Shown one piece after another: positions 21,590 to 54,500 of a stretch of 64,000 nucleotides of DNA; position 1 is the stretch's first letter; every line of letters starts with the position of its first letter. The translations under genes and the position numbers were made by a program. The stretch is from Euglena gracilis (lineage: Eukaryota). Where the stretch lies: assembly GCA_039621445.1 (NCBI GenBank), contig CP154954.1, positions 33,147,455-33,211,454 on the forward strand, written 5' to 3'. Below the pieces are notes generated by a model that saw nothing but the letters and a program-made list of their open reading frames with translations, made no database searches and was not told the origin of the DNA.

Positions 21590-24500
21590 CGGCCGCGTGG
21601 TGCGTGGCGTTGGGGCCCTGAGCCCGTTGGAGCTGGCGCTGGACGGGCTGTGCCTCAGCCTCCTCCTGTGCTCCCTGACGGCGGTGTGGCGGGTCCCGGC
21701 GGCCCAGGCACCGGTGGCAGCCGACCGCTGATTCTGGTCCCCCAGAAGCCACAAATATTTTTTGGCGTCCATACGTGAACCACAAAAAAAATTCTGGTGC
21801 CCACAGTGAACCACAAAATGACAACTTTGGTGTACCACACTAAATGAATGTCTTTGTTGGAGTGCGTTGTGAAACGGACCGAAATTGCCGCAACTGCATG
21901 AAGGTTGTTGGGTGCTCGTAATTTGAGTTTTGGTCACCCTTCCATCCACTTTGCAGGAAAAAAGGAGCAATATTAAAGGCAGGTGAACGAGAAAATGCAT
22001 CTTGTTCAATGCTCCTTGGCCCACCCCCTCCTTGAACTCCCTGCAATCCAGCCCCACTTCCCCAGCCCCCTCCAGGTACCCCGGTCCCCCCGCCCTCCCC
22101 CCTCCCAGGCCCCGGCACTGCATTTGGTCTCGCCGGCACGAGTCGAAATAGGGGTGGGGGCTTATCCTAACCCAGCTCAGCAACCCTGATTTATAAAACC
22201 CTCCCTTGGGCCAATCAACCAAGACAGCGGATAACCCCTCCCCCCCACCTGGTGAAGAAAAACAAAAGAAAGGGTTCAGGGACGAATTCTTTTTCTTTTT
22301 GCCGCAAAGACCCAAAACTGAGTTCTCTGCAATTGTTATATGGCGGACCGCGAATATTTGGACTCGAGCCGACACACCTATCCATAATTAAAATAAACTT
22401 TAAAAATGCCTTTTCCCCCTGAATTTTTGAGAATTTTGCTTAAGTTTTTTCAGAACTTTGCTCATGGTCTTTAATTTTCTGCCGGAGTACTCCCACTAGG
22501 TGGGTGTGTCCCAAGAGCTGTCCAAGAGCGGTAGGGGGATGACTGCCTCTGGTGGCTGTCCAGTATCCAATCCATGGCGCTTGGGGAGTATTTTGGGTGT
22601 TGGGGCATCGAAAGGGGTGGAAGCTCAAACAATTGAGGAACTGGACAATGTTCCACGGGTGCCAGAACTGATGCTTTTTTCCGGGAGTTGGCTTGTTTTT
22701 GCCGAGAGTGTGTGATTTCACTTTGTTAGTGACCGAATCGGTCAGATAAATTTCCGCCAGTGATTCTTTAAGCTTATTTAAGGTTTTATGAGGCATTATG
22801 AAGCTTTTTGGCCAATGAAAATTAAGGTTTTTAAAAAAAAAATTAGGCTTTGAGAGGCATGTTTAAAAATGGCCCTACCTGGGATATTTAACCCCCAACC
22901 ACTTGGAACCCTGTGGTTTACTGGATCTCGTTTGGTGAGTCAGCCGAAGGGGGGAGGTTAGAAGTCAAGGTCTGAATGTTACCGCGGCAGACTCGCGACT
23001 AAGCTGTTTTCGGCCCTTTTTTTGGGGGTCAAAAAAAATCAATTTTTTTAAAATTGTCGAAAATGGTGGGGAGTCAATGGAAATGTCCGGTGACCTGAAT
23101 TGAAGCCCTTTGAAGCCCTATCTAAGGGTATTTTGATTTCCCTGCAACTCCCTGCCTAGCCCGAGTTACGACCATTTTTCGGCCAATTTTGGCCATTTTG
23201 TACAGTTTTGGCCTGTTTTGATTTAACCGTTGTGGGCCATTTTTGGGTCAAAAAGGTCGAAAAGTTTTTGAAAAAAAAATCGAAAAAATTTTCCCGAAAC
23301 GATGTTTCCCGGACCCGGACCCGGACCAACTGTCTTTGGCCCGAAACCCATGCATTTGGGTGCAAAAATTCATATTGAGCCTCAAGAGTGTCCTAAAATA
23401 CACCCGGCGTGAAGCGCCGGAATATTTTTTTCCCGCCCTCGCAGAGGAGGAGGGGGGTGGGGGGGACCCCCTTCCGAAACTAGGAGGGTGGGGGGACAAG
23501 GTTTTGAATAGTGCTGAGCTCTTAATGGGACTTGCACGTAATGGACAGCCGAAAAGACTGGCATTGCAAATATCGATTTACAAATTACACACCTGCAATT
23601 TACGGTTACTTACAGTAGTTTTTGAAAGGTTAAGAAGTCAGCGACCCCCCCATACCCCCCATACCCCTTTGCTTCGATTTTTTCGACTTTTTTGACCTGG
23701 AAATTGAGAAGTTTCGGCGACCGAAAACTGGAGGTAGGAGGCCCCCCCCCCCGAGATTCCCATACAAGCCTGGGGGTTTGATTCGCTGCCACATTTTATA
23801 AATTGAGCCGGAGCCAAGGTCCACAATTTGGCTGATGTGCCTCAAGATCAATCCGCTTTTAGTTGTAAACCTTGAATTTTTTTCGATCCTCAATCAAGTT
23901 TTGTGGGCAATAAAAAATTTTGTGGACTCCAAAAAAATTTTGTGGTTCACCTGTGGACACCAAAAAATTTTTTGTAGTTCACCTGCGGACACCAAAAAAA
24001 TTTTGTGTTTTTGAACCACAACAACAGCAGTGCAACCCGGCCTCACGTTGACATTTCATCTCAGACCCCCGAGTCCTACGAGGTTGGGGGAAGCACCAGG
24101 TTTTCAGCCGACCGATGGGCGGTCGGTCGCCCCCACATTCCAGCCTCGCAAGGTTGGCAGCGCTGTCGTGGCCTGCCGATGTCTTGCGGCAGGCAGCAGA
24201 GGACGATGGGAACGGCTTTCGGTGGTGTGCCTTTCCTTCCCTCTGCTGGAGTGAAAGGCGGGAGGCCACTGCCGCCTCTGGCAAGGCCCTCCGGGGCCAA
24301 AGCTGCCCACGCACGCTTTGATTCGACGCTGACCCTCAGCACGGTCGGGTCTCTCCCAGCCATTTTTTTAAAAAAAGTGAAAAAGTTTAGGGCTGTTTAA
24401 GTTCTATTGCCCAGGGGTGGTCCAAGGGCGGTCCAGGCATCGAATGGGGTCTGAAACGAGACAAAAGTTGGAAGCCCCATTTCTTCGAGTTTGGGTGGAT

Positions 24501-27500
24501 GGACAATGTTCCAGCGATCCAGCGATTCCAGAAAGCTTTTTTTCCCAATAGTTGGCTTGTTTTTGCCGAGATTTTATGTTTTGCATTTTTTCTCAGTTGC
24601 ATTTTCCAGAGTGATTTTTCTTCGGGTTGTTTGAGGAATTTTAAAGGCATTTCTCAAAAAGCATCCTGGTTTGTCCTCACAGGAGGCTACGACAGTTGGG
24701 CGTGACGCAGTTCTGCTACACGCTCTTCGACTGGGTTGCGGTGGTGCACCTCCTCCCCACCCTCCTGACGTGGCGGTGCTACGACCTCCTGCTGAACCTG
24801 TGGGAGTGGTGGGGTCAGGTGTGCAGATCCCCTGCTTCCCACTGCTGTTTTTTACGCGTATGTGTGTGTATTTGTAATTTTTTTTCCTTTTTTGTTCCTT
24901 GTCACCTGGAAGTTTATCCACAGACATTCCTCCAAGATTTGCATGTGTTTGCCAGAGATCCTATTTTCGGGTCTTTCCGCTGGTGTTCTGTGTTTGTTTT
25001 TCTGCCTGCCTGCCTGCGCCGCCGCCTCCTCCTATCCCCCGTGGCAGGAGCCGGGCTACAACCACAACCTCCGCTGGCAGTGCATCGTGCAGTTCTGGCT
25101 CGCGGTGCTGGACGTCCCATTCGTCGTGATGGCCCTCTGCATCCTGCCACCTGGGGCGGAGCCACCCCTCCCACAGCCCACCCATGCCTGCCAGCCTGCC
25201 ACAGTCCTCCCTTGCAGTTACCTGCAGCACCCCGGCTCTGCCCCTGCGCTGTGCCCCTGGGAGGCCGTCCTGTTCTTCCTTGAGGCCCGGCGCCGGTCCC
25301 GCCAGCACGAGCGGCACCAGGACAACCTGACGCCGTCGTTCCGCCCCCTCATCTGGAAGTATTTCTGCCACACGGTGTGCACCCCCTGTCCCCACCAGAC
25401 AATTGCTTAAGCACTGGCCGACCTTCCCCCCCCCCCCGGGGGGTGACTGGTTTTTTCGATTGACTGACTGGTTTTTAGCCTGGACCCCCTCCCCCCTCGG
25501 GGGGGGGGGGTCGGCAAAAAACCACTAAAGTGACCCGGCGCCGAAGGTGACGGAAAATGTTTGGCCTTTTTTCCACGTTTTTGGTCAAATTTTCTTTGGA
25601 TTCCAGAGTGGCTGACCCCCCAGGGGGGGGGGGGTAGTGACTGACTGGTTTCCCGAAAAAAAGTGATTGACTGGTTTTTCAAAAAGTGGAGGTGACCCCC
25701 CCCGAGGTCGGTAAAAAATTGTGTGGTCCCCACCCTAACAGCCATGTGGTGTCCGCCGCGGAGGGGTGGTCGTGCGTGTGTTGCATCTCCTGATGGGATG
25801 CCGCCTCGAATTGGAACCCACCCAGGGCAACCTCACACCTCAGCAGTGAATGGCCATTTGGGCCAATTTTGCGGCACTATGCCTGCCACCCCAAACAGAC
25901 AGAACCCCAAATTCCCAAAGGTTCCAAAGCACCCAAGGCTTTTTTTTTGGAATCTTGGGTTTGGGGGACACGGCCGGGGGCTACAGGGGTCAGGGGGCCA
26001 CCTCAGGGGTTTTCCCTGCGGGCATGTGTGTTGGAGAACGGGGGGACTGCGGTGGAAACAACTCGCAAAGTGCTGGAAAACGGTTCCCTTCCAGTGTTGG
26101 GACATACGTGCGCGCGCGCACACACACACACACAGACAGACACACACACACACACAGACACACACACACAGACAGACACACACACACACAGACAGACAGA
26201 CACACACACAGACAGACACACACACACACACACGCACAGAGAAAGACACACACACACAGACACACACACAGACAGACAGACACACACACACACACACACA
26301 GACACACACAGAGACAGACACACACACACACGCACACACACACCGACAGACACACACACACACACACAACACACACACATCCCCAGGTGTTCGACGTCCT
26401 GCTGCTGCCCATCGCGCTGGTGCTGCTGCTGACGGGGTACCGCCTCCCCCGGGTGCTGGCCGAGGCGCGGGGCCCCTGGCGGGACGGAGAGCTGTTCCAG
26501 TGCAAGGCCATCGTGTTTTACCCTCCAGAGCCCGCCAGACCCACCGCCCAGCGGAACCCCCGAGGCTGCGGCTGGGCTGTACCCAACCACAGAAATGAGT
26601 TCGGGTCTGTGTAATATGTGTCCATATGTGTGCCTCGACACGCACATGTGCTGGTCTGGGTCCCGATGCGGATGAGTGTGCCAAGGCGTGCCGTGCCCCA
26701 GACCATCCCGGCGGGCCCTGCCGCCACTTCCTGGGCCTCGTGGCGCTGGACGTCCCGGCGGCGCTGTGCGGCATCGTGGTGGCCCTCACACTGTGGCGCA
26801 CGAGGGCGCTGCTGGAGGACCTGCAGGTGCTCCGCCGAGTCCTGTCCATCCCCCATGCAAGCCTTGCCGGTTAGTCGGCTTGTAAACCCCCAAATGTTTA
26901 GCCCCAAAATGTAAAGCCCCCCAAAAAACGAAGCCCCCTGGGGGGGTTTGGTTTTGCCGCCTGAATGATCGGGAAAAGCAGGGGGGAAATGGGTGGATAC
27001 AACAATTTTTTCACCATATATACTCCATTTTGGACAAAAACACGCTTTGGGAGGAAATAGGACGTAAACAACGATGGTATGCTTGCTATAAAGGAACTCA
27101 TCCCCACTGACGTCACAAATGCTTCGCAGCCTTAGAAACAGGCGGTCCACAAGGGACAGGAATGTATTTTTTTCTTTTAAGGGCCGCCCCTTAGAAACCA
27201 CCCTTGGGCCAAAGGCTTAGACAGCCGGGAATGCACTTTTCTTGTTGAGTCACAAAATTCTGGCAGTTTTATGAAAATGCGCATCCGCCCATTCCGGAAG
27301 CGGAGTGCGCAGGTGCGCATTCTGGATGGTTCTGTGCTTCTTCCAGACTGGGGTAAACACCACAAAATGAGCTGTTTGGATTTAACACAACCACAGGGAC
27401 CACCCCCTTGTATACTGCTTCAATTACGTATCATGCTGTTTACAACTGTTTCACGACGACTGTGGTACGGTACGCGGCTGGACACACACTCGACACACCA

Positions 27501-30500
27501 CATGACATGCGGAACACGGGCGACGTAGGCCAACCTGGACCTGGGTGTGCCTTGTGTTCACCGATGTGTGCTGATGGCTTCCGGGGGGCAGGGCCTAGTG
27601 AACCCAGGATGAGGGCTGCAGTGCGCCGTGTGGAATGCAAACAGCAGGCATCCCGAGGAGGGTAACAAGCCCTCCCCCACCAACATCTGGTGTGTATTTA
27701 AACACCCCCCCCGCCACCCTCTGAATGCACACCACACACACACATCAAACATTCGCTGGCGCTCCCCCCAGGCCCTGCTTCAAACACACGGCACAGAACG
27801 TCCCCTCCACTCTAAACAGAGAGACCACAGTGCCTCTTTCCCCCGGAGCCGCAATAACCGTCCAACACTTCAGGAAAAGGCTGGGGCGGGGAGGGGGGGT
27901 GAATGCGCTCCTGCGCATTCATTGGGAACCACAAAACAGGGGGGACAGCAACAGGTACAACGGCTTCACCTGACCAGGGTTCGTCCTCGTGAAACAGCGT
28001 TTTGTGTCACACCTCCTTTGGCATACGGGGTTTCTCCTTGGTCGGCGGAGGTGCTAAACCACTATTTTCAAAACGAAAAAAGTCGTTTCACCCAGGAAAA
28101 AACCCAGGGGTCGAAGCTGGCGGTACCCATTTTGGTACCCATCATGTTCATATATCGACGACCGTATCTTGGGCCACGCTTTGTATGAACCGTTTGACTC
28201 TCAACTGGTGCACCCAGGGAGAGAGATGACCTTGGGTTCTGTCTGAATGAGAGTGTCTGTCACACACGTCGACCCACCCCCCATTATTTTGCTCGTTTCA
28301 TACGCGACCCTGACCCATCCCCCCAACCGGCCCCCGTGGTCCAGGCCGCCGCGGGGGAGAGCGACGCGTGGCGGGGGGTCTGCCTGCGGCACTTCGGTGG
28401 GCTGCTCTTCGACCTGCCCTTCATGGCGCTGTTTGTGGCTCTGCTGCCGACCGGGTCTCCCCTCTCCCCAGGGCAGAACGGGAATCGGCCGAACAGCCAG
28501 GGTGGTGGGTGGGGGGGGGGGGGGTCAACCACCAGGCATTATTTTTAAGGCGAAATTTCTCAAATTTTTTAAGGCGTTTTTTAAGGTTTTTTAAGGTTTT
28601 TAAGATTTTTTAAGGCATTTTTTTCCTCAGGTAAAATGCCAGACCCCGAAGATGGCCCAATGGCTTCAGACTCCTCTGTGGCTTCGGAACGCCCAAGGAA
28701 GAGAGGGCGAAGGATGGGGATCAGGGCGGTCCATGAGGGACAGTTATTGTCAACATGCAAGCAAATATCCTGAATAGGGTCAGAAATTTAAAGTAATTGC
28801 AATGAATAAAAAATGGATGGTTTCGAGTTTGAGTTCGAGTTCGAGTTTGTTGAGCAATGTGTATGGCAGCACACTGCATGGGCACGCGTTTGGTATTGCT
28901 CACATGAAGAAGTTTGATTATTTTCTCGGTGTTAATGAGACTATCCGGTGTGGGTGCACGGCCGCATTGCGGGTCTGCAAATCCGCGATTGCAGTTCGGA
29001 TATCCACTGTGTCATTTTGCCACTGTTGTTGCAAATTCTCAATCCTACTTGCTATATTCGAGATTTTGGGTGTGAAAGCTTGCAAATTCAGCAGGAATTT
29101 ATCCACAATGGCAAGATTTCTGCTATAAACGAGAAATTCTTTCTTCCAACTGCTGCACATGAGTGCGGGGATCAAAACTTTCGCGTGCTTGGGCAAGAAA
29201 GTGGGAAAAATTCGCGGAATCACAGCTCAATTGGAGAACGCGCTGTTTCGCTTTTTGAAATGCTGTGGCAAGTGTGGGAAACTGCTCCAGCGTAGTAAAT
29301 TGTCCCAAATCGGTATTTTTTTGTTGTTCATGCAACTTTTGCTGCAATTGCACTTTTGAGCAATTTGGGTTGACTCCTCTACGAATGTCTCAAGTAATTC
29401 AAATCAAGAAAGATGTGGTTGCAAGTTTTACTTTTTCTGGCCGTGTGTCATAGCCTTTGGTGAACCGAGGCCAAACGAACTGTGCCAGAAACCTTGGCGA
29501 ACAATCCGGTTTTCATGTTGGTTGTTCACAACCAGGCTCCTTTTTAGTCAGAAGCCCCCCCCCCCTGGGGAGGGGGGGTGGGTGGGTGGGTCTGGGCCGG
29601 ACCCCCCCCCCTGGGGGGGTCCCGCGCCGGAGGCGCCGGGTATACCTTTTCGGCGCAAAGCGCCGAAATTTTGAAAATTGCCTTTAACGGGCCCGATTTT
29701 GGGGGGTCCCCGCCCCCCCCCCCCGGGGGGTCCCGCGCCACCCTGGGTGGGGGGGGGGGACCCCCCTCCCCCCCAGGGGTCTTAAAAAGAAGCCTGTTCA
29801 CAACTGCTTCTGCATTGACTGGCTTTATGCAGGGTTTCAGACATGCCATTATTTGTTTGGTGCAAGAAAAAATTTTCTCAGGGATAATTTTTAAGGTTTT
29901 TTAAGGTCATCACAGGGAAGAAAAACTTCCCCGGGGTGATTTTTTAAAGGTTTTTTCAGGTTTTTAAGGTTTTTTAAGGCATTTTGACAAAAAATTTAAG
30001 GTTTTTTAAGTTTTTTAAGGTTTTTTAAGGCGCCTTAAAAAATAATAATGCCTGTCGACCACCCCCTCCCCCCACCCCCTGCATGGTGGGTGGGGGGGGG
30101 GGTCGACCCCCCCACCACCTCTTCCCGTATTTCCGGGAGCACCAATTTTTGGACCCTAAAAAAATTTTCCGGTGCCTTCGGCGCCGGGTTTTTTTTTGAC
30201 CCATTTTGGGACCCATATCGGGGGTCCCCCCAAAAACCACCCAAACCCCCATTTTTTCACACCTTCCAAAAACTCAACATTTTCTCAAAATGTTGATTTT
30301 GAGAGGTTTTTGAAGCAAAAAAATGCCATTGAAAGTCCAAAAAAGTTCAACGAGAAAAATTGTCAGTAAAATTTGACTGTGCCAAAATTTTGTCCACTTT
30401 TTTTGACCTTCGTTTTTTTCACCCCCCTCCTAAAAAGTACCAGTTTTTAGGACGAAAATTTTGAGATTTTTTGTGAAAAAATGTGGTTTTCCATCAAAAA

Positions 30501-33500: not shown

Positions 33501-36500
33501 CAGAGCATTGTGTGTTACTTGTTCGTCCATAGTCCGGCAAATGATGGCAAACTAAATGATGGGGGAAAATGACAGGAAATAATGATGAGGAAAATCCCAA
33601 TCTTGGCAAAATCAACGATGAGAGAATTCAACACGTCTTCTAGTGGTGTTTTTTGTTATTCTTCATCACAAAACAAACCCAAAAAGGAATTCATCATAAC
33701 CCAGTTTTTTTTGCGTGTGTGAAACTCGAGCACCACTGAAACTGGCTCCTCCAAAGGGTGCAGAAAAGGTACGGGGTGAAAAAAACAACGAGAAAAATGA
33801 CGGGGAATATTGGGTGTTTCTGTTGTTTTTGTCCGGACTGCAAATGCCTCAGAAGAGTGTGAAAAGGGGCAGATCCTGTGCCCCCCTGGTCCGTGCACAA
33901 GTAAAGAATGGGTGCCCGCCCATGGCCCCCTCCCTGGCCGCCGCCCCAATGACACGCCCTGGCCCTCTGTCGCCCGTGCTGCCCCGCAGGGCACGCTGCT
34001 GGCGGTGCGGTTCACGGTCCAGGCCTACCTGGCCGCGGCGCGGGAGCAGCGGCCGCTGGCGTACTCGCTGCCGCCGCAGGCCGGGGCTGGCCCCCGCCCC
34101 ACCACCCGGCTGTGCGACGTGTTCCGGCGGGAGGTCGCCGCGGCGCAGGCGTTGTTTTTTTGAGGCGATAAATTTTTAAGTTTTTAGTTTTTTTGATGTT
34201 TCTTCTGGCGTTTTAAGTTCTTTTTTAAGTTTTTTACAATTTTCGAAGTTTGGTTTTCCAACGGCGGTTCAAGAGCCATCCGGGTTCCAAATGGCGTCCA
34301 AAATATATAAAAAAATGAAACCCCATTTTTTTGAGTTTCAGCAGAGAGAATCTTCTAGCGATGCCAGAATCCAATTTTTCCCCTGGAGTTGGCTTGTTTT
34401 TGCCGAGATATTCGACTTCATTTTCCTCGGTCTAAGAGAAATTTTGCCAGCCTAATTGTTCAAGATTTTTTTTATGTTATTTTCAGTCATGTTTGCCTTT
34501 TTTTTATTTTTTATTTTTTTGATCGTTTTTTGAAGCTTTGTAAAGGCGCCTGAAAAAAATGACGCCTGCCGCAGAGGTGATGGAGCTGCTGCTGGACGTG
34601 GTTGCCGTCTTTGGGCTGCTGTTGCACAGGCCCACCTGGCTACCCTGAACCCTGCCGCCCCCCCGCACGTCACCGGCACAGCACAGGCTGCGGGACGGCG
34701 CACAGTCGGTTCTAAGGGATTTCGGTTCGCCCCACCTAATTTGGCATGCACCATGCCACCTGCCATACACCTCAAAATGGGCTCGGCAGGGTGCAATGTG
34801 TGCTGAAATGGCTGGCCACCTCGTGGAGCCGGAAAAAAGGATGAAACTATTATATAAACTACGCTTAAAGTTAGTAGACCGATCTTTTTCGGCCGGACCC
34901 CCTGCAACGTTATTTGAGCAGTAGCCAAAACCATTGATGGGTTGATTGACCACTTTTCCCAAAGCAAATTGTGGCCAAATTCTGTTTTTTTTAAGAACTG
35001 TGACACAATTTAATGCTTCCAGTCATCAGACAACAGAACATTGTGGCGTTTGGGATGATTTTTGCTCTAACCTTCTCCTGATTCTCCAAAAAGATGCATC
35101 ATTTCCCCCATTTTTCTTTGTGAAGAGGGTGAACAAAATTTTTGGACGGATCCTTTTTGGCTTCCCATCTGCAGAGTTATTTGGGCACTGAAAAGTGATT
35201 GGGGGGGTCACCAACAATCTTGCAGACATGGTCAGTCGACGCCGTTTGTGTCTACCACTTGTTTGGATGTTCGCACCCATCCAACATAAAAAATTGGTCC
35301 TGAGACGGAGTCCTTCTTGCAGACGACAGGCAAAGCATTATTCCCCAGACAGGAAAAGGTGGCCTCCTGGGAGTGGCTCCGAAGCATAAAGTCCTGTGGA
35401 GTGTGGTGCATTTTTGAGAGTCACCCGGGACATGCACTGCTTGCGAACCCCATCGGTGGCCCTGGCCCCAGTCACCGCCAACCCCTTCCGGGCCTGGTGG
35501 GTGTGGTCGCGGTTCCGCAACGGTGAAGAGGTGTGCTCCCTGCCTGTAGAATCCTCTGAGAATCCTATTCTGGATCAAAAGTGGGTGGAGGGGGCAGATC
35601 GCGCGTTTCTCGGTCTTACATCCCAGACAAAAATGACAGGGGGGGGGAATGACAGGGGGAAAATGATGGGAATATTTCGATTTCAGAAAATTAATGATGG
35701 GCAGTTCAACTTGTCCATATAGCAAAAATTGGCGCCCCCACTAGCCTTAGTCAGGGGTGTTGGGGTGAACCCGAAAAAGAAAAATCCCGTCCGTGGCGCC
35801 CTTGTCCCCCAAGATACATGATGTGATGCTGTGGCGCGTGTATCTGTGTATGTATGTGCATATGGTGACAAAGCTATCGTCACATTACTGCCCCGGGCAT
35901 TGGCCAGCGCCTGCCCCCACAAACAGGCATTCCGCCTGCGGCGCGTGGCCAAGTGCCTCGCCTCCACGTTGCTGGAAGCCAGTCGACATCCGTGGCTGTA
36001 CGGCAACCTCGTGTGCCGGCTCGAAGGAAAGGTCCAACCCCCATTCCAGCGTGCTGTTTGTTCAAGCCAGTTGGAGGGGGGGGAGTCAGCTCATGACGAT
36101 AGCTGGCCTGTGGCGAAAAAAAAGTAAAAACCCCCCAAACATAAGACCCCCGGCTTTATATTTTGACGGGATTTCAACCCTCAGGGGGGGAGGGGGGCTT
36201 TATATTTGGGGGGGGGAACAAACTTTATTTGGATGGCCTCTATGACCTTCGGCGGCCTTTAATTGTGGAAAAATACAAGTTTATTCCAAATTTCCGTTTT
36301 GTACCTCCCATTTTCCGCAAAAATGGGCAATTATTATCCAAAATGAAGCATTTTTGGTGAAAAAAAATGCTGCATCCACCTAAAATTTTTCAACTTTTCC
36401 TGAATGACATCATCGTCTGGCTTCCCAGCAGGGGGGGCTTTATATTTGGGCGGCAAACCCATACGCATTTTTTTCCGACGCTGGGCCAGCGCACTTTCCC

Positions 36501-39500
36501 CCCACCTGCCAAAAGCAAAATAAGTCCTCTCCCTCATTCGAAATCCTTCACACTTCCCTAAAGGATGAGTCAAATCCCGCAGTTGAGTCCAACCAGGTTC
36601 GTTTCGAAGTGCAGCTGCCCACGCCTGCCCTCAAACCTTCCGTTCCTCAACCCCCCCCCCCAATCAGGCGAAGCAGATCGCGCTGCAGCTGCCCACCCGG
36701 GCGGCCATCGATCGGCGGCACGAGCAGCAGTACGAGCGGCACCTCTCCACCCTCAATTCCCTCGCCCTGCACCCAGGGCTGTGGGGGACTCCTCGAAACC
36801 CTATGGTGGGGGGAGAGGGGGGGTCAACCCCCTCAATCCTGTGGTGGGGAGTGGACCCCCCCCCCACCACCACCAGGTTAAAAAGCAGCAAATTTTTCTT
36901 TCGGCGCCGAAGGAATTTTCTCCTGCACGGTGCTGTGGTGGTGGGGGGATCTGACCCCCCATCCACACAGCCTTGTCGGCAACTGCAGGCCCAGGGGGAG
37001 GCCTCGATGGCGGAGGTGTGCGGTGATGCGGGTCTTCCCAGGAGTCATCTGGCATGCCCGGTGTTTGTCCCATGCTGCTGCGACCACCCCCAAAAAACAG
37101 GCATCGGGTGAAAACAGAAGGCACGCTTTGTTCTCTGAGTGTGGGTCCTTGGTCTCGGGTGATTTCGTTTCTTCCCAGTGAAACAGGATTCCCCCTCCGC
37201 GAGGGCGAAATTCGCACCAGTTCTTGGGTCACCCCTTTCGTTCCCTGGGAGTTATTTCTCTTTGGTGTTGAAGCAGGCATTGGCTGAAACTGTTCCGGGC
37301 CTCGGTAACTGAGGAACTCGTTTTTAAGCATTTGTGTGTGGCCGTTGCGCAAGTGCGCAGCATTTTGCTGTCCCTCCAACCCAGCTTCGGTGGAATCCAC
37401 CCTTTTGTTCTTTTGGTCCATGTGCTTAATTTTATACCTTTGATTCCTTCTGGCGTCTAATGAGAAGGTTTTTCTCGATGTGCAGAACAAAACCTGTTGG
37501 CATCACCGGCACCAGTGGTCCCCTCCCGCCACTGTCAACACGGTTTTGCCGAGAACGTTCGCATCCACTGCCATCTTTTTCCACTGTGCCGGGACAGGGT
37601 TTTTTAGGACCGCCCCGCCCACCCCCTGCAGTGGGTTCGCGAGATCGGGGCCCTCCACTTCGGCCTGCTGAAGGAGCAGTGCCGGTGCCTGGACCGCCTG
37701 CTGCGGGCGCTGCTGCCGGCGTGTGAACCTGCCCACAGCCTGCCGCGGCTGGAGCACCCCCAGGGCGGCAGCAGAGCGGCCGGCGAGAAGGGCGGCCGAA
37801 AGCTCCACCGTGCCTCGGGGCTGGACCACAGCACAGGCGGATTCGTCGTGTAAAAGTGTCCTCAAGACTCCTCACCAGAAGGGCAGCAGTAAGACTCACC
37901 AGAACGGTAGCAGTAAGACTCACCCGAAGGGTCGGCAGGCGCCATGGTTCCCCATTCAGCCACGGGACAGATTTTTTTTTCGCTGAACGGCCCCTCTCCA
38001 AAATGGAGTGGCTCTGCAGCCATCATTCCCGGTAAACCCAGTTCTCAACGTTTGGAGAAAAGGGACATCCCCCACACCACAAACGCTTCCGCTTCCCGCT
38101 TCCCCTGAAGCGTGTCTCCCCGCGGCATTGCCGCCCTGCAAGCGCCATCCAGTGCGGTCATCGTGGGAAACACATGCACCTGAAAGCGGCCGAGGGGGCG
38201 CTGCTGAGTCTGCCACTCTGCTTGGGTGTGCCCCTCTGCCATTCCATCCTGCAATCAACAAAAACAAGTCGCCTGCGATTTGACCCCAATTTCCTCCCTC
38301 TTCTCTGTGGAAGCCTCTTTTCAAGCTTTTCCACTTCAAGTTTCTTTATTTATCGGCAGGATAATGTCGACGATCAGGAGGATGGATTTTGTGTCAATAT
38401 TTGTGTTAACCAAGCTAACCTCCTCCAAAGAAGAAGGCCACCCATGGGCCCACCAAGCAAAAAAATACAAAAGAACCCCCCCCCAATTTCAAGGCCTTTC
38501 TGGTGGGGGGAATTGCTGAAATCCTATTTTCAAGCATGAAATGATGATAATCCTGATTTTGGGGGGATTTTCGGACCAAAATGCTCATGCGAAACCTCAA
38601 TATAATCCAATTTTGCACATGTGCGAAACACCAAGCTGAAAATTTTCGGGTTTTTGGGACCCAAAAATTTGGTGCCAAATGAGATCTTGTTTCTGGGTCC
38701 ATTGCCAGAATCCACTGGGGGGGGGATTTTTTTATTTTAACCAACCTGGGTAGGACGATTCCGAGTCATTAAACTTTTAAGGTAAATTTTTTCAAGTTTT
38801 AAGGTATTTTCAGGCTTTTTAAGGCTCTTTAAGGCCCTTTAATCCACTATTTTACTAGGGCTGTCCAAGAGCGGTCCAGGCCAACGCTTTTGATTCTTAA
38901 CGTGGTCCAAGATCCATCCAGAAAAAAAACATTTTTTTGAGGTTTGGTTGAATAGACCACGTTCCAGCGATGCAGGAAATCGGATTTCCCCTGAAGTTGG
39001 CTTGTTTTTGCGGAGATTTTACAACTTCATTTCTGCTTGGTAGGAGAAGAAATCTGCCATTCCGATTTTTAAGGCATTTTAAAGTTTTTTGAGATTTTTA
39101 AGCGGTTTTTCAGGTACCCCAAAAAAACGTATGCCTGGCGGTTCCCCCACCCTGGTGGGGAACCCACTCCCAGGGCATTTGTTGTCCCTATGGCGAGTTG
39201 GCCCCACCCTTTGTCCCCACAGGGGAGGAGGAGGAGGAGAAGGAAGGGGCCTCTGATCAGGAAGTCCCTGCACCTTTATGCACCTTTCTGGGGAGTGCCA
39301 CGCTGTGCTTGTTCAACGGCGGCCACCGCGTCATTTGCAGCGCAAGTAACGTAGAATATCCCCCCTGCCCAAGGCCAGGCGTTTTCCCCAAATCAGACAC
39401 CTGGGGGGTATATTATTTGGGCCTTAGCTGGGGGTGTATATTATTTCGGGGGGTCTATTCTTTGGGCAATTTTTTCGACCTCAAAAGTCACCCCCCCCCA

Positions 39501-42500
39501 AATACAAAAAACCCAAAATACAAACCCCCCCAAAATATAAAACCCCCCTGGGGCGTTTGATTTGGCAACCAAGTATAATCATCCAAGCAATATACCCAGG
39601 GGGTATTTTAATACGGTGCCTGAAAAACCTTGGAAAACGGCTAAAATTTTTGGCCAAAATGATGCAAAATTAAAATGTGTTTAAAAATCATTCGCGAAAT
39701 TTTCGAAATATGAGCCGAAAAATGAAGGTGCAAAATCACCACAAAAGCAAGGCAACTCCAGAAAAAAATGATTTCTGGCATTTCTGGAACATTATCGATC
39801 CACCCACACTCAAAAAAATGGGGGTTTCAATTTTTTTCCCCTGATTTTGGACCCTGTTCGATCCTGGGATGGCCCTTGGACTTCCGGTGGAAACTAGACG
39901 TCTGAAAATCTTTAAGAATGCCTTAAAAACCCTTAAAAACCTTTTTTTGAAAATTTACGCCTGAAAAAATCCCTTGAATATGCACCCTCCCCGGCCCGGG
40001 ACTTCAGCTGCTCAAACAATATACCCCCGCCTGCCGCACCAAAGAGAGGGAAATCAAGCAAAGCTGCGCCGGAAAAATGCACTGGTGGTGGATGTGCAAG
40101 GCACCGCCAGAGATGCCCGCAGGGATCCCTTCATCGCTCCCCAGCTCCCGCGGAGCAGGTGTGGTGGCCCAGACGAACTTGGTTTTTTCGGGGAGGCACC
40201 GGGGCTTTTTTTAAAGTTTGATGCCTGGGGGATGGGGGTTGGACTGAGTGGGAGGGGGGGGGGGACTTTCCTCTGTTTTCGGTACGAAAAGCCAAAAACC
40301 TTTTGGATCCCTCCATTGACCCCCAAAAGTGGGTCCCCGACTGACCCCAGGGGTGGATCGGTGGGTCTGGACCTCTGGGACACCTCTGGGCCCCATTGCC
40401 GAACCCCAGATTTTATCCGTTCGCCTGCACGGGTCCCGCAAACCGGACTCCCTGTCTGTCCGAAGAGGACGAAGCCGCCCAGCTCAGCCGCCGGATGGCA
40501 GCCCTGGAGGCGGCCGTCACGGCGAGGAGGGCAGCGATTCTGGACAGCGGCCAACCCCACCCCGGCGTCTTTCGGAACCCTTGGCTTCCGCTTCGTTTTT
40601 CAATTCCGGGGCCATTTGTTCCCAGATCCAGGGCTGTGCGGGAATCCCCGAAACCCCAAGGGTGGTGGCTGGTAGGGTTCGACCCCCCCCCACCAGCCTT
40701 CCCGTGCTTCCGGGGATTTTCAGGTCAAATTTTCGCAAATTTTCAGGTCAAATTTGTCTTTTGGTGCCTTCGGCGCCGAAGGAATTTGCCTTGGGGGATG
40801 CTGTGGTGGGTGGGGGGTTATCGACCTCCCCCCCACCAGGCCTTCCCTGCCCAGTTGTGATTCGAAAAGTTGCACATATTCGTTGCTCAATTTTCATCCT
40901 GGCAGCCAGGATCAGCGGACGTCAGCGGCCTCACTGAGGAGGTTATGGCCAGTCCAGTTCCACGTCCTGTTGGCACCGAAACACTGCCCCCTTCTCCTCC
41001 CACCCGTTCTCCAGTGAGCAGTGGTTTAAATTGTTTGGTTGCGCCCGTTACTCAACTCACCAAAAAAGGGGTCCCGGCTGTGGTCAAACCACCAGCGCTG
41101 TCCCTGGCCGCTGGCGCCGGCCGAGCTGGACGCGGCGCGCGGTGAGCGATCGGCAGCCGCGGCGGCGCTGGGCTGGTTCGGGGCGGCGGAGTGGTCGAAG
41201 AGCCGGAGGGTCATCCTGTTGGGGCTGCAGCAGGCGGTATATGATTGCCTCGCAGCTGGGGTCCGATGCGATTCCAAGCCCCATCCCTTTCCCCTTTCTT
41301 GCTGCCCAAGGCTGCAAGCCGTGTCTGCCGGGGGGGGGGCGGATGGCACAGCTGATGGGCATGCCTGCCTCCCCCCCCGTCGATTGCAGGGTTTGTGTGT
41401 TGTGATTGCACACATATCTGCAGTCGATTGTGGAACGCCAGCTGCACTTGACGACTGTTGCATTGGGGAGCAGCTGTCAGACTACAGACAAACGTCAAAT
41501 TTCTCACCCAGTGACACCCCACCATCCACCATGTGTGTGTGTGTGTGTGTATTCTGAACTGACAGTCTGATTTGATGTGGGGATCGGCAGGCTCCGCATT
41601 GGCCTCCTTCCCCAGTGGGATGTGCCCTCGTCATCGTTCTCTCCTGCTACCGACTGCGGTGTGTGGCTGGGGAGTGGTTCATATTTTTATTTGTTGTCTG
41701 GCTGAAGGGTCATCAATGGGCATTATTTTTTCAGGCTTATTTTTAAGGCATTTTAAGGCATTGTGCAAATGACAGCATCTTTGTCGTTTTATAATTCCTT
41801 AACAACGTTGGTAATTGGATATCGCACAATATCGCAAATATCGCAATATCGAAAAATATCGCACAGGGGTGCAATATCTTGCAAGCATCGCGCAAAATAT
41901 CGCAATCATATTTTTTTGCCCGTAATGTCTAATTTTGTGTCAAAAACTCTTTAAATATTCCCTAACTTATAGCACATTTTTGGGTGACGTCAGCACAGCG
42001 AGTCGAAAATCCCCCATCCCCCCCGCGACGAATTCACGCCATCAAGCCCATTCACACTAAACCTCCACCCCTATTCGAAGCCCCCCGGGGGTCTGCAGAA
42101 AACCCGAGGGGGGGGGCTTCTAATTTGGCACCCTTTGTCTAAAGGACAAACCAACCGTCGGCTGGCGGCCGATCCGGGGATCGAACAGGGTCCAGATTTT
42201 AAATTTTGCAAGATGCGTTTTTTTCGAGTTTTGGGAGGATAGGCCACGTTTCAAGGACACCAGAAGTCAATTTTGTTCCCAATCTCGACCTGTTTTCGTG
42301 GAGATTTTTCGAGTTTTTCACCATTTTTCGGAACAATTTTGGTCAGCTTTGTCGGCCGGCCTGGTCAGGGGGGGGGTGGCTGTTATTTGAATTTTTGGAG
42401 GGAAACCCTATGGGGGGGCTTCTAATTGGGGCGTTTTAAGAGATATTCCAGTCATCCCAAACTTTAGAGATATTGCATACAATTTCATCACGTGTCTCAG

Positions 42501-45500
42501 TTGATGGCAGGGGGCTGTGGACCCCCCAGGTGAAGTTCACTGGTGAACATTCACCGGGGGAGGGGGAACCCTCGGCCGGTGAATTTCATTGGGGGACAAA
42601 ATGGTCATTTTGGATTGATGGGTCAAAGGACATTTACCAAAATTTCTGAGCACTTGCCAAAAATGTCATTTTTTGGCCATTTTTGGCCGAAAAGCGCTCT
42701 TGTGGTTAACTTCACGGTGAAGGTCACTGGTTGGGCAGGGGTAGGGGTCCAGGACCCTGGTGAAGTTTCAAGCCAGGTCACGCCCAGTCACATCCAGTCA
42801 CGCGCAATTCTCGATTGTACTGCAAATGTCGCAAGGGGTGCAATATCTCGCTAAATATCGCAACCCCCAAATGCAAGATCCATTGCCAACCTTGGTTCAA
42901 ATTCAGGATCGCCCCTGAGAGCAATCCTGAATGAATTTCCATTTATGGGTCGCAATATGTTTGGGTCACGGAGTGTTGCCAGGACAGAAAGGGCTCAGCA
43001 CCTTCACGGACCGGGTCGTGCGGTCCGACATGTCGCAGTCAAAGGCCAACGGCTGGTCTGGGAGTCAAACGGGGTCAAAAATTTAATCACCGAAAACCGC
43101 TTTTTTGGACGGTTTGGGTGGATGGGCGACGGTCCAAGGATGCCAGAAGTCACCTTTTCTTCCTGAATTCGACCTGTTCTTTTTTGTCAAAATTGGGCCA
43201 TTTTTTCGGCCATTTTCCCGGTGGATTTTGCGTCGTTGAATATGTTGGAACAGGTATTTTTTTAAGGACCTCCCTCGCAAATTCCTGCGGCAGAACATCA
43301 GTACATCAGAAACCAGACAGCAAACTGTCTTCGACAACACATTCGACCCAGAATGTTAAAGAGCCATCCGGGCATCGAACCAACGTCGGTCCAGGTTGAA
43401 AATCAAAAAGTTCAAACCCCCAGCTTTTTGAGTTTTGGGTGGATTGACGATGTTCCAGCGATGCCACAACATTTCCCCGTATTTCATTTGTTATTGCCGA
43501 GATTTTGCGATTTCTTTTGCTCGAAATTTGCAAATTTTTCCGGGTCCAATTTTTTAAGGTGTTTTGAAGTTTTTGAGGCGCCTCAAAAAAAAATAACACC
43601 TGCAGGGCAGACCAGGGCTGTCCCCCTCACGCCACTGCATGGGCGTCCCTTCCCTCGCAGGCCGTTCGTGGCGTCCCTGCAGCGTAGCCCGGACCGCCGG
43701 GGGCAGTGCTTCAAGTACTGCGGGGCCATCGTTGTGGACGGCTGGTACCTCGTCCAGGTGTGGCCAGGAGTGTGTCCAGGGGTGTGTCCAGGGGTGTGTC
43801 CAGGTGTGTCCAGGGTCCAGGTGTGGTGGAGGCCCGGCCGGACACGCCCACGGTGCCGGCAAAGGTGCAAAGGTGGTTGGTTCGAGGGGCCCACAAGAGG
43901 CATGTGCCAACCTGTTGGGGATTGAAAGTGCACGCGTTGTGGTGCACGATGCACTTGTCTGCTGATTGTTTGCTGGTGGCGAAGTGCCCTAAACTGCCCT
44001 AACCATCCGTCCCTCCTGGGAGTTCTTTGTCTACCCTTGCATCCAGGGATTTGAATGGAAATGTGTATCTTAGGGGAGGGATTCTATTGGAATAACACCC
44101 CCATTAAATGTTCAAGTGGTCCCCAAAGGGGGACCATTTGAACATCCAACCATCCAATAAGCAGGAGAAGTAAGTTGGGAGGGGTTTGTGAGTTTCTGCC
44201 CTCGAATTGTCCAAGAGTTGTAAGCCCAAGCCTGAAGAAGGGGCACACCCTTCGAAACAATCTGAAATGAATACTGAGAATGCATCCACATCCAGTGGCT
44301 TAATTCGACGTCTGCTGTGTGAGTTAAAAGGGGAAATGCTGTGTTGATTTCGCTTTGTAGGTCGTGCTGATCATGGCTTGTGTTCGATATTTCCTCCATC
44401 TGCCCGTCGATTTGATACGCACTGCTGTTCAAGGGGGCACTTTGAAGCAGCTGCGAAAGGTCTGCTGCTGAAATGTGGTCTTGTTTTGATCACTGCTACT
44501 CACACACACTTGCACACATACACCGATGATAGAGCTTTTTGTTGACAGCATTGGGATTCAATATCATATGTGTATGCCGTTGCATATGCAAACCTGCCAT
44601 GGATGTATTGATATATGCATCTTTTCATGGACACATTTTCGAGCGTGTATGCCAGTCGAAAGCAAACGTCTCTACGAAATGTTTCTATTTGTCTTTACAC
44701 CCCTTCGATCATCTCAGCTGTATTTGTGGTCAAGATAATACCCATTTTGATGCCCGAAAAATATCCATGAATATGTCCCAGCCATGTCTCCAATTTGCCC
44801 CTTTCATCCCACGTCAGGAGCCCAATAGAGAATAACCAAAGAGATTCAAACACATTTTAAAATCGGTCAGACCTCCAGATTTCTGGGGAGTTAGGCGCTC
44901 AAATGTGGTCGGTAAGAACTTCAAAACCCCCAAAATGGCTGGACCGTGGGTCGCAAACTTGGGTGCTGGGACTGTGGGTCTTTTTGGTCTTTATGACCGC
45001 CCTGGTGCAGCAATTTTCCATTTTGGAAGGTTACTTGGCAAGTTTTGGTGAGGCATGAATTTTGAATGAGGCATGAATTCATTTTGAGAGGGCAAACTTG
45101 GGGAAGGGATGACCTTTTTATGGCTATTTCACAGGCTGCAAAACGGAGTATACATGACATATCTTGATCCGCCAGCGATGGATTATGGCAGTATGGGATG
45201 GATGCACCCCAAAAAAATTCTGGCCCAGACCTACATTTGGTTGGACATTTCCAACAATCCCAACCTTAGCCTGTGCCTTCAATCAGAATAAGCCCAAGGA
45301 ACCTTTGTGGGGCAGGCCCTGTGTTTTGCAAAAAATGGTCCCCACACAAGCCTGAGCACGGATGTGGGGGATTTCTGTTTTTTTGCTGCATTTTCGCAAT
45401 CGCTGTGAAATTTGCCCTGCAAGTTGGGGTCATTTGTGGGTCAAAAAAAGGGGGGGAATGCTTCTCAAAAAAATCTGAAAGTAACCTTTCAATTATTTGG

Positions 45501-51500: not shown

Positions 51501-54500
51501 CCCTGTCCTCCAGTTTTTGGGTACCTTTTAAGTTTGGGAGGGGAAGCCGTTAACTGATCGAGCTGCAGGGGAGGGCTTCATCCAGAGGGCTTCCCTTCAG
51601 TCGTGTTTTGGCGCGTCACGGATTCCGCCAAACCGCCACCTGCGGGCGTGATGACCTGGGAGCCAGAGCTGCAGCCGGGGGCATGGGCGCCTTTCGTCTT
51701 CCTGGGCAGCATCACTGGAGACGCTTTGACTGGCCTTTCTCGTGCCACCAGCAACGGTCAGTAAACCCCCCCCAAATGGTATTGCACCCGCAGCTCTATT
51801 GGACGGCCGCCTTCGGCGGCGGGGGGTGCAGCACTATTTGGACCCGCAGCACTATTGGACTGGGTGCCTCTTAGTCCCGGCCTATCACCACAGGCACCCT
51901 TTTTGTCTGCTCAATGTCCTTCTCTGAGGCTAGTGAGGTCGTGTGGTTCATCTTCGGACGACTTCTGTGAGTTTTTCGGGTGGGAATTTACCCCCTTTCC
52001 CCTCTCTGCGGATTAAAAAAGGTGCCTGCAGTAGGCTGCACCAGCTTCTACACATTTCATATTGCTATGTTTTGGGTGGGTGCAGCACTATTGGACGCTC
52101 GCTTCATCCGGCGGGGGTGCAGCACTATTTGGACCCGCAGCTCTATTGGCCCCGCAGCACTATTAGGGGGGGGGTTATCGTTTTTCTGAAGTCAAAGCAG
52201 CTGCATTCGGTGGGAAGAGCAAACCCCTGTGCGATTTCGCACCCCCCCCTTCGGCTTTGGTTTTGGTTTTGGTTTTGGGAGGGCGCAAGGGCCCAAAAAT
52301 GGCCATTTTCAAGGAAAAGTTGGCTAGATCGGCAGGCACCAGGGCCTAACAGTGACCCCTGGAGTGGGGGGGGGGGGGTGCCTGCTTTGGGCAGGCAGCC
52401 CATAATAATAGAAGGCAACCCCAGGGATGGCAACAGGAAGCCTGTTTCCAGGAAGTGCCATTTGCACATCTGTTTTGTTGGAGCCTTCGGACCACAAAAT
52501 CACCCATCTGTGCCAGCGAAGGTTTCGGATCGGCGTTCACAGAAATGTGCATCAGAGAAGCCAGCGGCGTTCGTCCCAACACTGGCCTGCCTGCTGCACT
52601 ACCTGTCCCCCACGTTCGCAGGTCTATCTTTTTCAGGGACTCTCAAACGTTTTCGGGCTCCCTCTTCCAGGGGTTTCTTTTTAAGGCATAATTTTTATAA
52701 AAAAAAGTTATAAGGTTCACCAAGGCATTTTTTAAGGTATTTTAAGGCTTTTTACGACATTTTTAACATTTTAAGGCGTCTCTTTTCCAAGGGAAGTCCA
52801 AGGGCCATCCCGGCATCGAACGGGGGTCCAAAAGCAAAAACGTCGAAACCCCATTTTTTCGAGTTAGGGTGGATTGAGAATGTTTTAGCGATGCCAGAAA
52901 TCATTTTTTCCTGGACTTGGCTTGTTTTTGTTTTATAAGGTTCTTATTTTTTAGGGGTTTTAAAGTTTTTTAGATATTCTAAGGCATTTTAGCCAAAAAT
53001 TTAAGGCGTTTCTTTTTAAGGCTTTTTTAGGTTTTTAAAGGCACCTTAAATACTGCCCCCTGCCCACCTCTCCAAATATTGAAGTGATTCCTTTCAGGAG
53101 CTGAAAAGTTGAATCGGCCTGCTGCTGGAGTGTCCATGTTTCAGTCAGAGAGTCATTTCTTTCTGCGTCACCAACTGCATCACCCCAAATCCCCCACCTT
53201 TAATGTTTTAATTGCATGTTGACCGACATTCCATTGATTCCAGTCAGAAGATGGAAATGCCGCCGCCGTGGAACATTCACGGATTCGGTCAATTTGGCCA
53301 CCGCACACCCCCAGGGTCCTCCGGGCTGCGGCCGTACACCCTGGGGGCCTCCTTGGCGGTCTCCTTCTTCGTGCCCACCGCCTCTCACAAGGGGGCAGCG
53401 TACCTGAGGGCGGAGCGGGTGTGCAATGTGTAACGCCTCCTTGCGAATGGGGCGGCCGAACACCACCGCCGTCAAAAGGGTTTTGTTGTGTGTGGGAGAA
53501 GTTGTGGGCTCAGGGTTGAGGATGGCAGCTCCGACCGCCAGCCACACACACCCTTCACAACAGATTGGCCTCCCGGTGCAACACATGCTCTTGCAAGCGC
53601 ATGAAAATCGCTGCTGGCCAGGCCTTTTTCCTCCGGCATTTGCCTGGATCCTACAACCTCGAGGTTGCCTTAACGGGTGTTTGTGCACGCAGCAGTGTAT
53701 GCCTCGCAGGCAATTGCTGACATCCATTTTGCGGGCTGAGCTGGAATGGGCTTGTGACATCTGGCGCCTCGATGGCAAATGGGTCAGCTGTCCGGGGTTT
53801 GAAACACCAGCGTCTTGTTGACAATTCAGTGCATGGCCACGCGAGTAGGAGACTCGCGTGGCCAATTCCAATTCCAATTCCGTCGGCACAGGGTTCAGAG
53901 CTGGTCGGCCAAACACAGAAATGAGTTCTTTTGTCACCTTCCCGGCTGTCCCCCCCAATGCTAGCGTCGCAGGGACCGACCCGTGGGACCCCCTCCCAAC
54001 CCAGCATGGCAAGCGTTTCGCGGCTTTGGGACCGCGAGGAGTGAGCCGGGTTGGTGCAAAGCCCTCGGTGCACTAGGCCGGCTGGCTTTCAAGGGACGGG
54101 TAGTTTTTTCACCAAGGACCGGCCTTTGAGGACCCCACTTTGGCCAGAGGGCCAATGGGGTGGAAAGTTAAAAACTTCAAACCCGCCTTCTTTTGAGGTT
54201 GCAGATGGATGGCCAACTCGTCTACGGATGCCGGAAGTCAGCTTGTTTTTTGCCAAAGCGGACCTGTCTTCGCCAATGCAGTTCAAATGTTGTCATCTTC
54301 ACCCTGGGTTGGAAGTGGAATGAGCCGAACGCCAGTTTTTTTTGCTCCTCAAGGACCGTGCGGAAGCTTTGGCTGATCCGGGGGGGGGCATCCAGAGGGG
54401 GAGGCCCACCGCACGGCCGCCGGAGACCACTCCAGCCGTGGTCTGACCGCCTTCTTGCATCTGTGCCTGGCGCTGTTGGTGGCCGTCCGCACTCTCCCCG

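Follow-up and report, generated by a model that had tools for sequence, protein, structure and literature searches.

Can a transposable element form an entire intron, such that its removal leaves the coding sequence of the host gene unbroken? This question is raised by an insert at 34146-34568 in a 64,000-nucleotide (nt) stretch of the Euglena gracilis genome (assembly GCA_039621445.1, contig CP154954.1, positions 33,147,455 to 33,211,454, forward strand), hereafter the window, whose own numbering is used throughout. The window has the character of Euglena-like nuclear DNA, with short exons rich in guanine plus cytosine (GC) lying amid introns richer in adenine plus thymine (AT). A previous interpretation of the letters alone, hereafter the sequence-only reading, had proposed that a nonconventional intron at this site is exactly one MITE (miniature inverted-repeat transposable element) plus an 8-base-pair (bp) target duplication split 3+5, and had taken it for a candidate introner system of hAT MITEs. 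The sequence observation at 34146-34568 is confirmed, and the description of the intron as a MITE plus a split duplication is strengthened by the family membership, the duplication length and the reading frame presented below, whereas the junction itself is not among the RNA joints listed.

The explanation that we regard as probable is that an old MITE copy lying in an exon is removed, together with 8 nt, by the nonconventional pathway. An AT-rich, non-autonomous DNA transposon of ~400 bp, with CAGG...CCTG ends and an 8-bp target duplication, would have landed in a coding exon of a many-exon gene on the + strand, the copy now being old and ~20% diverged from its consensus. The euglenid nonconventional pathway, counting 3 nt upstream from CAG and 5 nt downstream from its paired CTG and requiring the next exon to begin with a purine, would then remove 34143-34573, that is, the element plus 8 nt, with the inverted repeats serving as the stem read by the pathway. 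Because 3+5 equals the length of the duplication, the coding sequence would return without a scar to its state before the insertion.

The insert and its family in the window

The features of the insert are as follows.

34146..34568, + strand: MITE copy of 423 bp, GC content 0.34, ~80% identical to the family majority consensus
34146..34167, + strand: left terminal inverted repeat, also the 5' half of the terminal stem of the intron
34547..34568, + strand: right terminal inverted repeat, also the 3' half of the terminal stem
34138..34145, unstranded: left copy of the putative 8-bp target duplication, of which 5 nt would be retained in the exon and 3 nt would leave with the intron
34569..34576, unstranded: right copy of the putative 8-bp target duplication, of which 5 nt would leave with the intron and 3 nt would be retained in the exon

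The insert, with its GC content of 0.34, lies between flanks of 0.82 and 0.62, and only short stop-to-stop open reading frames (ORFs) are found inside it. Its inverted ends are CAGG...CCTG; 14 of 16 positions are complementary between 34146-34161 and 34553-34568, the same count as in the sequence-only reading, with both mismatches becoming G-U pairs in RNA, and a repeat search lengthens the arms to 34145-34167 and 34547-34569 (23 nt, 87%). The adjoining 8-mers, CCGCGGCG at 34138-34145 and CCGCAGAG at 34569-34576, are identical at 6/8 positions, again as counted earlier, and both mismatches lie in the halves that would leave with the intron (left positions 6-8; right positions 1-5). The probability of at least 6/8 is 0.0066 among 200,000 random site pairs within the window and 0.0106 among 8-mer pairs drawn from exons of the host gene.

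The interior of the insert had been described in the sequence-only reading as common to many repeats, and BLAST indeed returned 12 outside matches to 34222-34460, at first of the interior only. When the copies were aligned with their projected flanks, homology covered both T-rich arms, and a profile search of the window gave 10 long copies and ~18 fragments; the BLAST matches, alignments and profile together show that the homology in fact spans the element from CAGG to CCTG. In the alignment of 12 ends (seven 5' ends and five reverse-complemented 3' ends), CAGG falls in one column in 12/12, preceded by unrelated flanks and followed by the common sequence CAGGnGTTAnTTTTTAAGGCG. The stem of the intron is therefore the inverted repeat of the element. 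The copies are 70-85% identical to the majority consensus (80% for the copy at 34146-34568), and the family is therefore old. Having terminal inverted repeats common to a multi-copy family, and being small and AT-rich with only short ORFs and apparently no transposase, the insert at 34146-34568 is supported as a full member of a multi-copy MITE family, whose other copies with both ends placed are listed here with the identity of their flanks.

28533..30054, + strand: family copy K, 1522 bp, with a 24-nt inverted repeat; flanks TCAACCAC / TCGACCAC, 7/8; within GT-AG intron 28454-30904
52668..53062, + strand: family copy A; flanks 6/8
39597..39976, - strand: family copy B; flanks 6/8; within nonconventional intron 39255-40461
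24357..24668, + strand: family copy H; flanks 6/8; within GT-AG intron 24224-24681
61361..61773, + strand: family copy D; flanks 6/7 at register 7, or 7/8 if the 3' end is set one base earlier
60918..61328, - strand: family copy C; flanks 3/8; head to head with D
38715..39137, + strand: family copy F; flanks 2/8
43218..43602, + strand: family copy I; flanks 1/8
7753..7845, + strand: deletion derivative L, 93 bp, with the ends of the family; flanks 1/8

An obvious alternative to an element that became an intron is a MITE that fell into an older nonconventional intron, in which case the CAG...CTG stem would be part of the intron rather than of the transposon. Larger introns do enclose most family copies in the window (H, K, B, F and I), and one nonconventional intron of the host gene (nc3) contains a nested fragment of the family core. 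At 34146-34568, however, the homology starts directly after the 3-nt spacer and runs right up to the 5-nt spacer, and intron 34143-34573 has no sequence of its own beyond the 3+5 nt. This alternative, contradicted by the alignment of the 12 family ends, is thus extremely improbable.

To estimate the length of the target duplication, the inverted-repeat alignment was used to set the element ends, and the n nt preceding the 5' end were compared with the n nt following the 3' end in 10 copies, E and J being left out with one end unplaceable in each. At n=8, at least 6/8 positions are identical in 5/10 copies (6 in the copy at 34146-34568, A, B and H, and 7 in K), the remaining scores being 3 (C), 2 (F) and 1 (I, L and D); the count rises to 6/10 if the 3' end of D is set one base shorter, which brings D to 7/8. 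None of 90 non-cognate flank pairs reaches 6/8. Summed over the 10 copies by hand, the identity is 39/80 at n=8 vs 21/70 at n=7 and 26/90 at n=9. A duplication of fixed length, 8 bp, therefore abuts the element ends in 5/10 copies against the random-pair probability of 0.0066. A comparison of 8-nt flanks with a null had been suggested in the sequence-only reading for non-GT-AG introns genome-wide; the one run here on the family copies of the window supports the conclusion that the family duplicates 8 bp of its target.

Several family members are placed in ways worth recording. Copies C and D (60918-61773) stand head to head with 32 nt between them. Copy H fills 312 of the 458 nt of the conventional GT-AG intron 24224-24681 and ends 13 nt 5' of the acceptor, so that much of the body of this intron is transposon. 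Copy K sits between long G-runs and C-runs, and the contig depth in 29936-30602 reaches thousands, so that the region of copy K is a very high-copy transcribed repeat. The core fragment within nc3 (32183-32909) lies at 32308-32464 in reverse orientation.

Geometry of the proposed removal from the host transcript

The exons and introns around the insert are as follows.

33990..34142, + strand: upstream coding exon of 153 nt, contig depth 181.3, open continuous frame
34143..34573, + strand: putative nonconventional intron of 431 nt, consisting of N3 (GCG), the MITE and N5 (CCGCA), the next exon starting with G
34574..34623, + strand: predicted exon of 50 nt, needed for the frame and fitting the bin depth
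34624..35469, + strand: predicted second nonconventional intron of 3+5 geometry, with a CAGGCCCACC / GGTGGCCCTG stem and flanks 0/8
35470..35530, + strand: exon ending at the RNA-confirmed GT-AG joint 35528|35925 (cut +2)

RNA mapping on 24600-44599 used three raw-read runs and one contig run with the same species label. One + strand gene extends across 24.2-46 kb, with GT..AG joints read on the + strand and the first mates of the stranded run almost all on the - strand; loose ends at 24682 and 44461 match 24194-24223 and 46017-46039, so that the gene runs beyond the mapped stretch. Among the 15 of 76 joints listed, 8 are GT-AG and 7 nonconventional. Exons 33990-34142, 34574-34623 and 35470-35530, the first of which would be reached from 32952 through a predicted GT-AG intron, lie in one stop-free frame from 32143 to 38226 with RNA-confirmed joints on both sides, and this frame is open only if 431 nt, or a length equal to it modulo 3, is removed. 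The earlier statement that removing 34143-34573 restores the frame is thus borne out. A 3434-nt contig of depth 181.3 covers 34016 and 34088, only a contig of depth 3.81 is found at 34308 and 34316, and the main transcript contig is without the interior of the insert. An exon start near 33987-33990 agrees with the distance between 34016 and the end of the aligned piece, and hand arithmetic on the contig-depth sums gives 8271 vs 8348 predicted (a 43-nt exon plus one low-depth contig) for bin 32604-33270 and room for ~19-22 exon bases in bin 34605-35271.

The geometry of the candidate intron can be compared with a code defined by E. gracilis knock-ins, 5'-N3CDG...CH'GN5-6|R (Nomura et al. 2025, PMC12501133), in which the donor spacer tolerates no 1-nt change either way (PMC12501133). 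Intron 34143-34573 reads GCG-CAG...CTG-CCGCA|G and fits every sequence term of this code: GCG is followed by CAG at 34143-34148, the complementary CTG at 34566-34568 is followed by CCGCA, with only N5 keeping the frame, and the downstream exon begins with a purine, G at 34574. The required extended pairing of the ends is present in the 23-nt arms (87%), with 14 Watson-Crick and 2 G-U pairs in the first 16, and RNA folding places the terminal helix in both the minimum free energy and centroid structures (z = -2.2). The family ends also share four letters with the published consensus of E. gracilis nonconventional introns, CCAGG at +3..+7 and CCTG at -9..-6 (PMC11170887). The agreement of 34143-34573 with the experimentally defined Euglena code is thus supported, and both the exact cut sites and removal by the nonconventional pathway, not the spliceosome, are what this agreement would predict. 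The junctions, with purines at all four positions, depart from the rules of Milanowski in having G at 34142 and A at 34573; such deviations occur in 6/55 introns at each of two positions (PMC4770533, 2016).

The spacing can be followed through the host gene by taking the paired CAG-type and CTG-type triplets as anchors and counting how many bases of the intron lie outside the stem, a total unaffected by sliding of the cut. This spacer total is 8 in 6/8 other RNA-supported nonconventional introns of the gene, the exceptions being 7 in 32183-32909 and 10 in 39255-40461, and the host gene therefore usually loses a stem-bounded body plus 8.

Several observations weigh against the proposed origin and removal of the insert. 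The 15 of 76 joints listed do not include 34142|34574, and the reads on exon 33990-34142 have a depth of ~6 vs 13-16 on later exons. At least three haplotypes are present at 34016/34088, and contigs leave the window sequence at 34049, as they do at 41118; the divergence at 34049 and the haplotypes mean that paralogues or isoforms exist. The flanks of 34146-34568 also match at 7/11 positions at register 11, because the flanking sequence is low-complexity and 3-periodic, so that the 6/8 at this copy alone is weaker evidence than it looks, and the summed identity of the family at n=11 is 44/110, owing to the low-complexity flanks of this copy, A and K. No transposase Pfam match was obtained in 20 ORFs. 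Beyond the family, seven other nonconventional introns of standard geometry have 19/56 matching flank positions vs a background of ~0.28, with the matches bunched at positions 4-7 and no clear duplication, and among the elements with placed ends 1/11 is a whole intron. Finally, the frame into the RNA-confirmed exons would be kept equally well by a conventional intron of 440 nt, 440 and 431 being equal modulo 3 (34133|34574).

That last possibility, in which the spliceosome removes a GT-AG intron at 34134-34573, uses the same acceptor with a donor 9 nt further upstream and gives a protein minus three residues. The dinucleotide GT is present at 34134-34135 and CAG at 34571-34573, and 8 of the 15 listed joints of the host gene are GT-AG. 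Yet the donor at 34134 reads GTCGC, against the E. gracilis consensus GTGTG (PMC11170887), which is found in 5 of the 8 listed GT-AG introns of this gene; an A-run, and no C-rich pyrimidine tract, lies beside the acceptor at 34573; and a spliceosomal intron would leave the 23-nt stem and the exact fit to the nonconventional code out of account. We therefore consider spliceosomal removal unlikely.

With regard to the flanks, the 6/8 identity at 34146-34568 might be a product of chance in GC-rich, 3-periodic coding sequence, the true duplication having decayed. The wrong-register score of 7/11, the probability of ~0.01 for exon 8-mers and the ~20% divergence of the copy speak in this direction, whereas ~5-6/8 is the retention expected of two copies at ~20% divergence, and the position of both mismatches in the intron-leaving halves is as expected if the exon halves are under selection. 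We judge chance identity quite unlikely, slightly more so than spliceosomal removal, and even if it were the case, the family membership and the geometry would be unchanged. It is more plausible that 34138-34145 and 34569-34576 represent a decayed duplication.

As for the contigs that leave the window sequence, the consensus strings of the loose ends at 34049 and 41118 occur nowhere in the 64 kb, even with up to 3 mismatches allowed, and hence come from a paralogue or another locus, being uninformative on the 34142|34574 junction; a paralogous copy or second allele of the host gene is expressed. A search with the 51-amino-acid exon protein against longer proteins yielded 187 candidates, 0 with E <= 0.001. 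Elsewhere in the gene, a 31-nt GGA-rich micro-exon at 39224-39254, seen only as intervening letters in a transcript contig, lies between an upstream CAG acceptor and a downstream GAT-CAGG nonconventional donor. At 28507-28524, many RNA reads from three runs end in long G-runs that do not match the window, which is probably a length-variable or mis-assembled homopolymer.

A second element and the superfamily

The family of 34146-34568 is accompanied in the window by another element of the same outward form.

4308..6107, + strand: M2, second CAG...CTG element, 1800 bp, with a 20/20 inverted repeat and an 8/8 duplication, GTCGGGGA

M2 is unrelated to the family of 34146-34568; its inverted repeat starts with CAGACATTC, it carries subterminal tandem repeats, and no Pfam domain was found in its ORFs. 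With a perfect repeat and a perfect duplication, M2 resembles a young insertion, which suggests, from its sequence, recent activity of a related kind of element. Fragments of the M2 family lie at 21749-21854 and 23786-24010. Ab initio scanning for paired inverted repeats of the CAG...CTG form (20-nt arms, at least 16 matches) gave 19 pairs, of which only 34146-34568 (6/8) and M2 (8/8) have flanks of at least 6/8, most of the others resembling low-complexity chance pairs. A metagenome scan with a degenerate end motif gave 74 loci, 0 of which were matched by the family profile, and these were set aside as chance matches.

M2 is also relevant to the view that the flanking repeats are not made by a transposase at all, being instead a footprint of break repair or microhomology, or a by-product of junction preference. 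The 8-nt repeat at a new gapC intron of E. agilis has been read as break repair (PMC4770533), 84.4% of all E. agilis introns, among them conventional ones, are bordered by short direct repeats (PMC12501133), and the flank matches of the other nonconventional introns examined here cluster around the cut. However, copies A, B, H and K, none of which is a whole intron, have the same 8-bp identity directly abutting their inverted repeats, and the flanks of M2 match at 8/8. The flanks of these elements cannot be shaped by splicing, and an origin of the repeats other than transposition is very unlikely.

Elements of the hAT superfamily have a terminal motif of the CAGGG form and a target consensus of nTnnnnAn. 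The ends of the present family agree with the former; the latter is not seen, T2 plus A7 occurring in 0/6 family duplications and not in M2 either, although the sample is small and the feature weak. The hAT elements are further described as having 8-bp duplications and short inverted repeats of 10-25 bp (PMC3942097), a description that fits the 8-bp duplications and the inverted repeats of 16-24 nt found here. Like hAT MITEs, the elements of the window combine 8-bp duplications, short inverted repeats, subterminal repeats and CAGGG-form ends; unlike them, they have no hAT transposase or autonomous partner among the 20 ORFs scanned, nor the hAT target consensus. These 20 ORFs comprised 10 of the 100 window ORFs of at least 150 amino acids and 10 ORFs inside M2 and K, and the only Pfam matches were to Sporozoite_P67 and EMP24, both below the cutoff.

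Mobilization of the family by a superfamily other than hAT, for example Merlin or another type duplicating 8 bp, is possible, if rather unlikely. Two Merlin families with 8-bp duplications are known in E. gracilis (PMC8101967), so that the present family shares with them both the duplication length and the species group, the 20 ORFs scanned gave no hAT domain, and the duplications do not follow nTnnnnAn. On the other hand, whereas Merlin elements have a target duplication of 8-9 bp together with a conserved terminal 5'-GG (PMC8101967), only the duplication is shared here: the family ends are 5'-CAGG, with GG confined to positions 3-4 in 12/12 ends, and no DDE_Tnp_IS1595 ORF is found among those scanned. 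A hAT-like affiliation is thus unproven but somewhat the better guess. Of the hAT-MITE designation in the sequence-only reading, the MITE part holds, and the hAT part, still unproven, rests on the 8-bp duplications, the short inverted repeats and the CAGG ends.

Prior proposals and wider meaning

That nonconventional introns resemble MITEs had been noted in the sequence-only reading as an older suggestion, and it has in fact been in print since 2014, when a MITE origin was proposed (Milanowski et al., PMC3935182), and was repeated in 2025 (PMC12501133, PMC12621601), with 'TSD-like' junction repeats noted in a 2024 review (PMC11282704). In this literature we came across neither an identified family of euglenid elements that acts as an intron nor a link between the 3+5 spacers and the length of a transposon duplication, and the supplements of these papers may hold more; within that scope, both the family identified here and the 3+5=8 geometry appear to be new. 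The intron at 34143-34573 shares with euglenid nonconventional introns (PMC3935182, PMC4770533, PMC12501133, PMC11282704) CAG at +4..+6 and CTG at -8..-6, spacers of 3 and 5 nt, a purine opening the next exon, a terminal stem and junctional direct repeats, and differs from them in that we found no published family for them, whereas here a set of copies has 8-bp duplications and one copy is a whole intron. It is also worth comparing with the introners of Micromonas and Aureococcus (Huff et al. 2016, per PMC11282704), in which a non-autonomous transposon with terminal inverted repeats likewise becomes an intron on insertion and the target duplication supplies part of the exact removal. In those introners, however, the spliceosome carries out the removal, using one splice site inside the element and another taken over from a 3-nt duplication, whereas 34146-34568 follows a non-GT-AG rule measured from a stem, with an 8-bp duplication split 3+5, and is the one family intron in the window.

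How far this case may be generalized is limited by the same window. For the introner system envisaged in the sequence-only reading, 64 kb is too short a stretch to decide: there is a single whole intron among 11 elements with placed ends, the seven other introns have 19/56 flank matches, and a generalization to other nonconventional introns does not follow from the evidence of the window. Family members account for 1/10 of the nonconventional introns seen in the host gene, the others being GC-rich and, save one pair, unrepeated in the window. That pair consists of nc4 (210 nt, 36769-36978) and a segment at 40628-40844, which are homologous nearly end to end (75-78%), the latter nested within nonconventional intron 40542-41118 of the same gene; by its sequence, the pair hints at another mobile, intron-like family, this one GC-rich. 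At the nested copy (within nc6) the flanks score 2/8 or 5/8 depending on a one-base choice of end and were not used. With regard to the account of the Y|R junction rule offered in the sequence-only reading, position 6 of the duplication, read by hand, is a purine in two of the six family copies with matching flanks, 34146-34568 included, so that any purine rule would be a filter of splicing rather than a target preference.

Published data from E. agilis have a bearing on the broader idea. Nonconventional introns make up 71.8% of the introns of this species, and 69.1% of them are 'slidable' through junction repeats (PMC12501133). Direct repeats of eight nucleotides are present at gapC intron 4 of E. 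agilis ACOI 323, the one nonconventional intron documented as newly gained (PMC4770533). The CCAGG/CCTG consensus, the slidable share and the 8-nt repeat of the newborn intron all point the same way as the idea put forward in the sequence-only reading. We tentatively suggest, without regarding it as the likelier outcome, that the 3- and 5-nt spacers exist because the pathway co-evolved with resident CAGG...CCTG transposons duplicating 8 bp, and that most nonconventional introns are decayed copies of them. If this is true, any such exonic element with a purine at position 6 would be a scarless intron at once, in either orientation, and the consensus, the high slidable share and the newborn 8-nt repeat would all be explained.

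Since its publication in 2014 the MITE idea has lacked an identified element, and this locus gives it a family whose ends are the stem of an intron, a measured duplication length of 8 and an arithmetic link, 3+5=8, to a spacer rule established by knock-in. The hypothesis thereby becomes countable: young nonconventional introns should show a peak of flank identity at exactly 8 bp, empty sites should lack the element plus 8, and clean splicing would be expected in both orientations for a fresh exonic element with its duplication. A link of general validity would explain how massive transposon insertion into coding sequence can be tolerated by a genome, and would suggest a reason for the form of a second splicing rule that is not that of the spliceosome.

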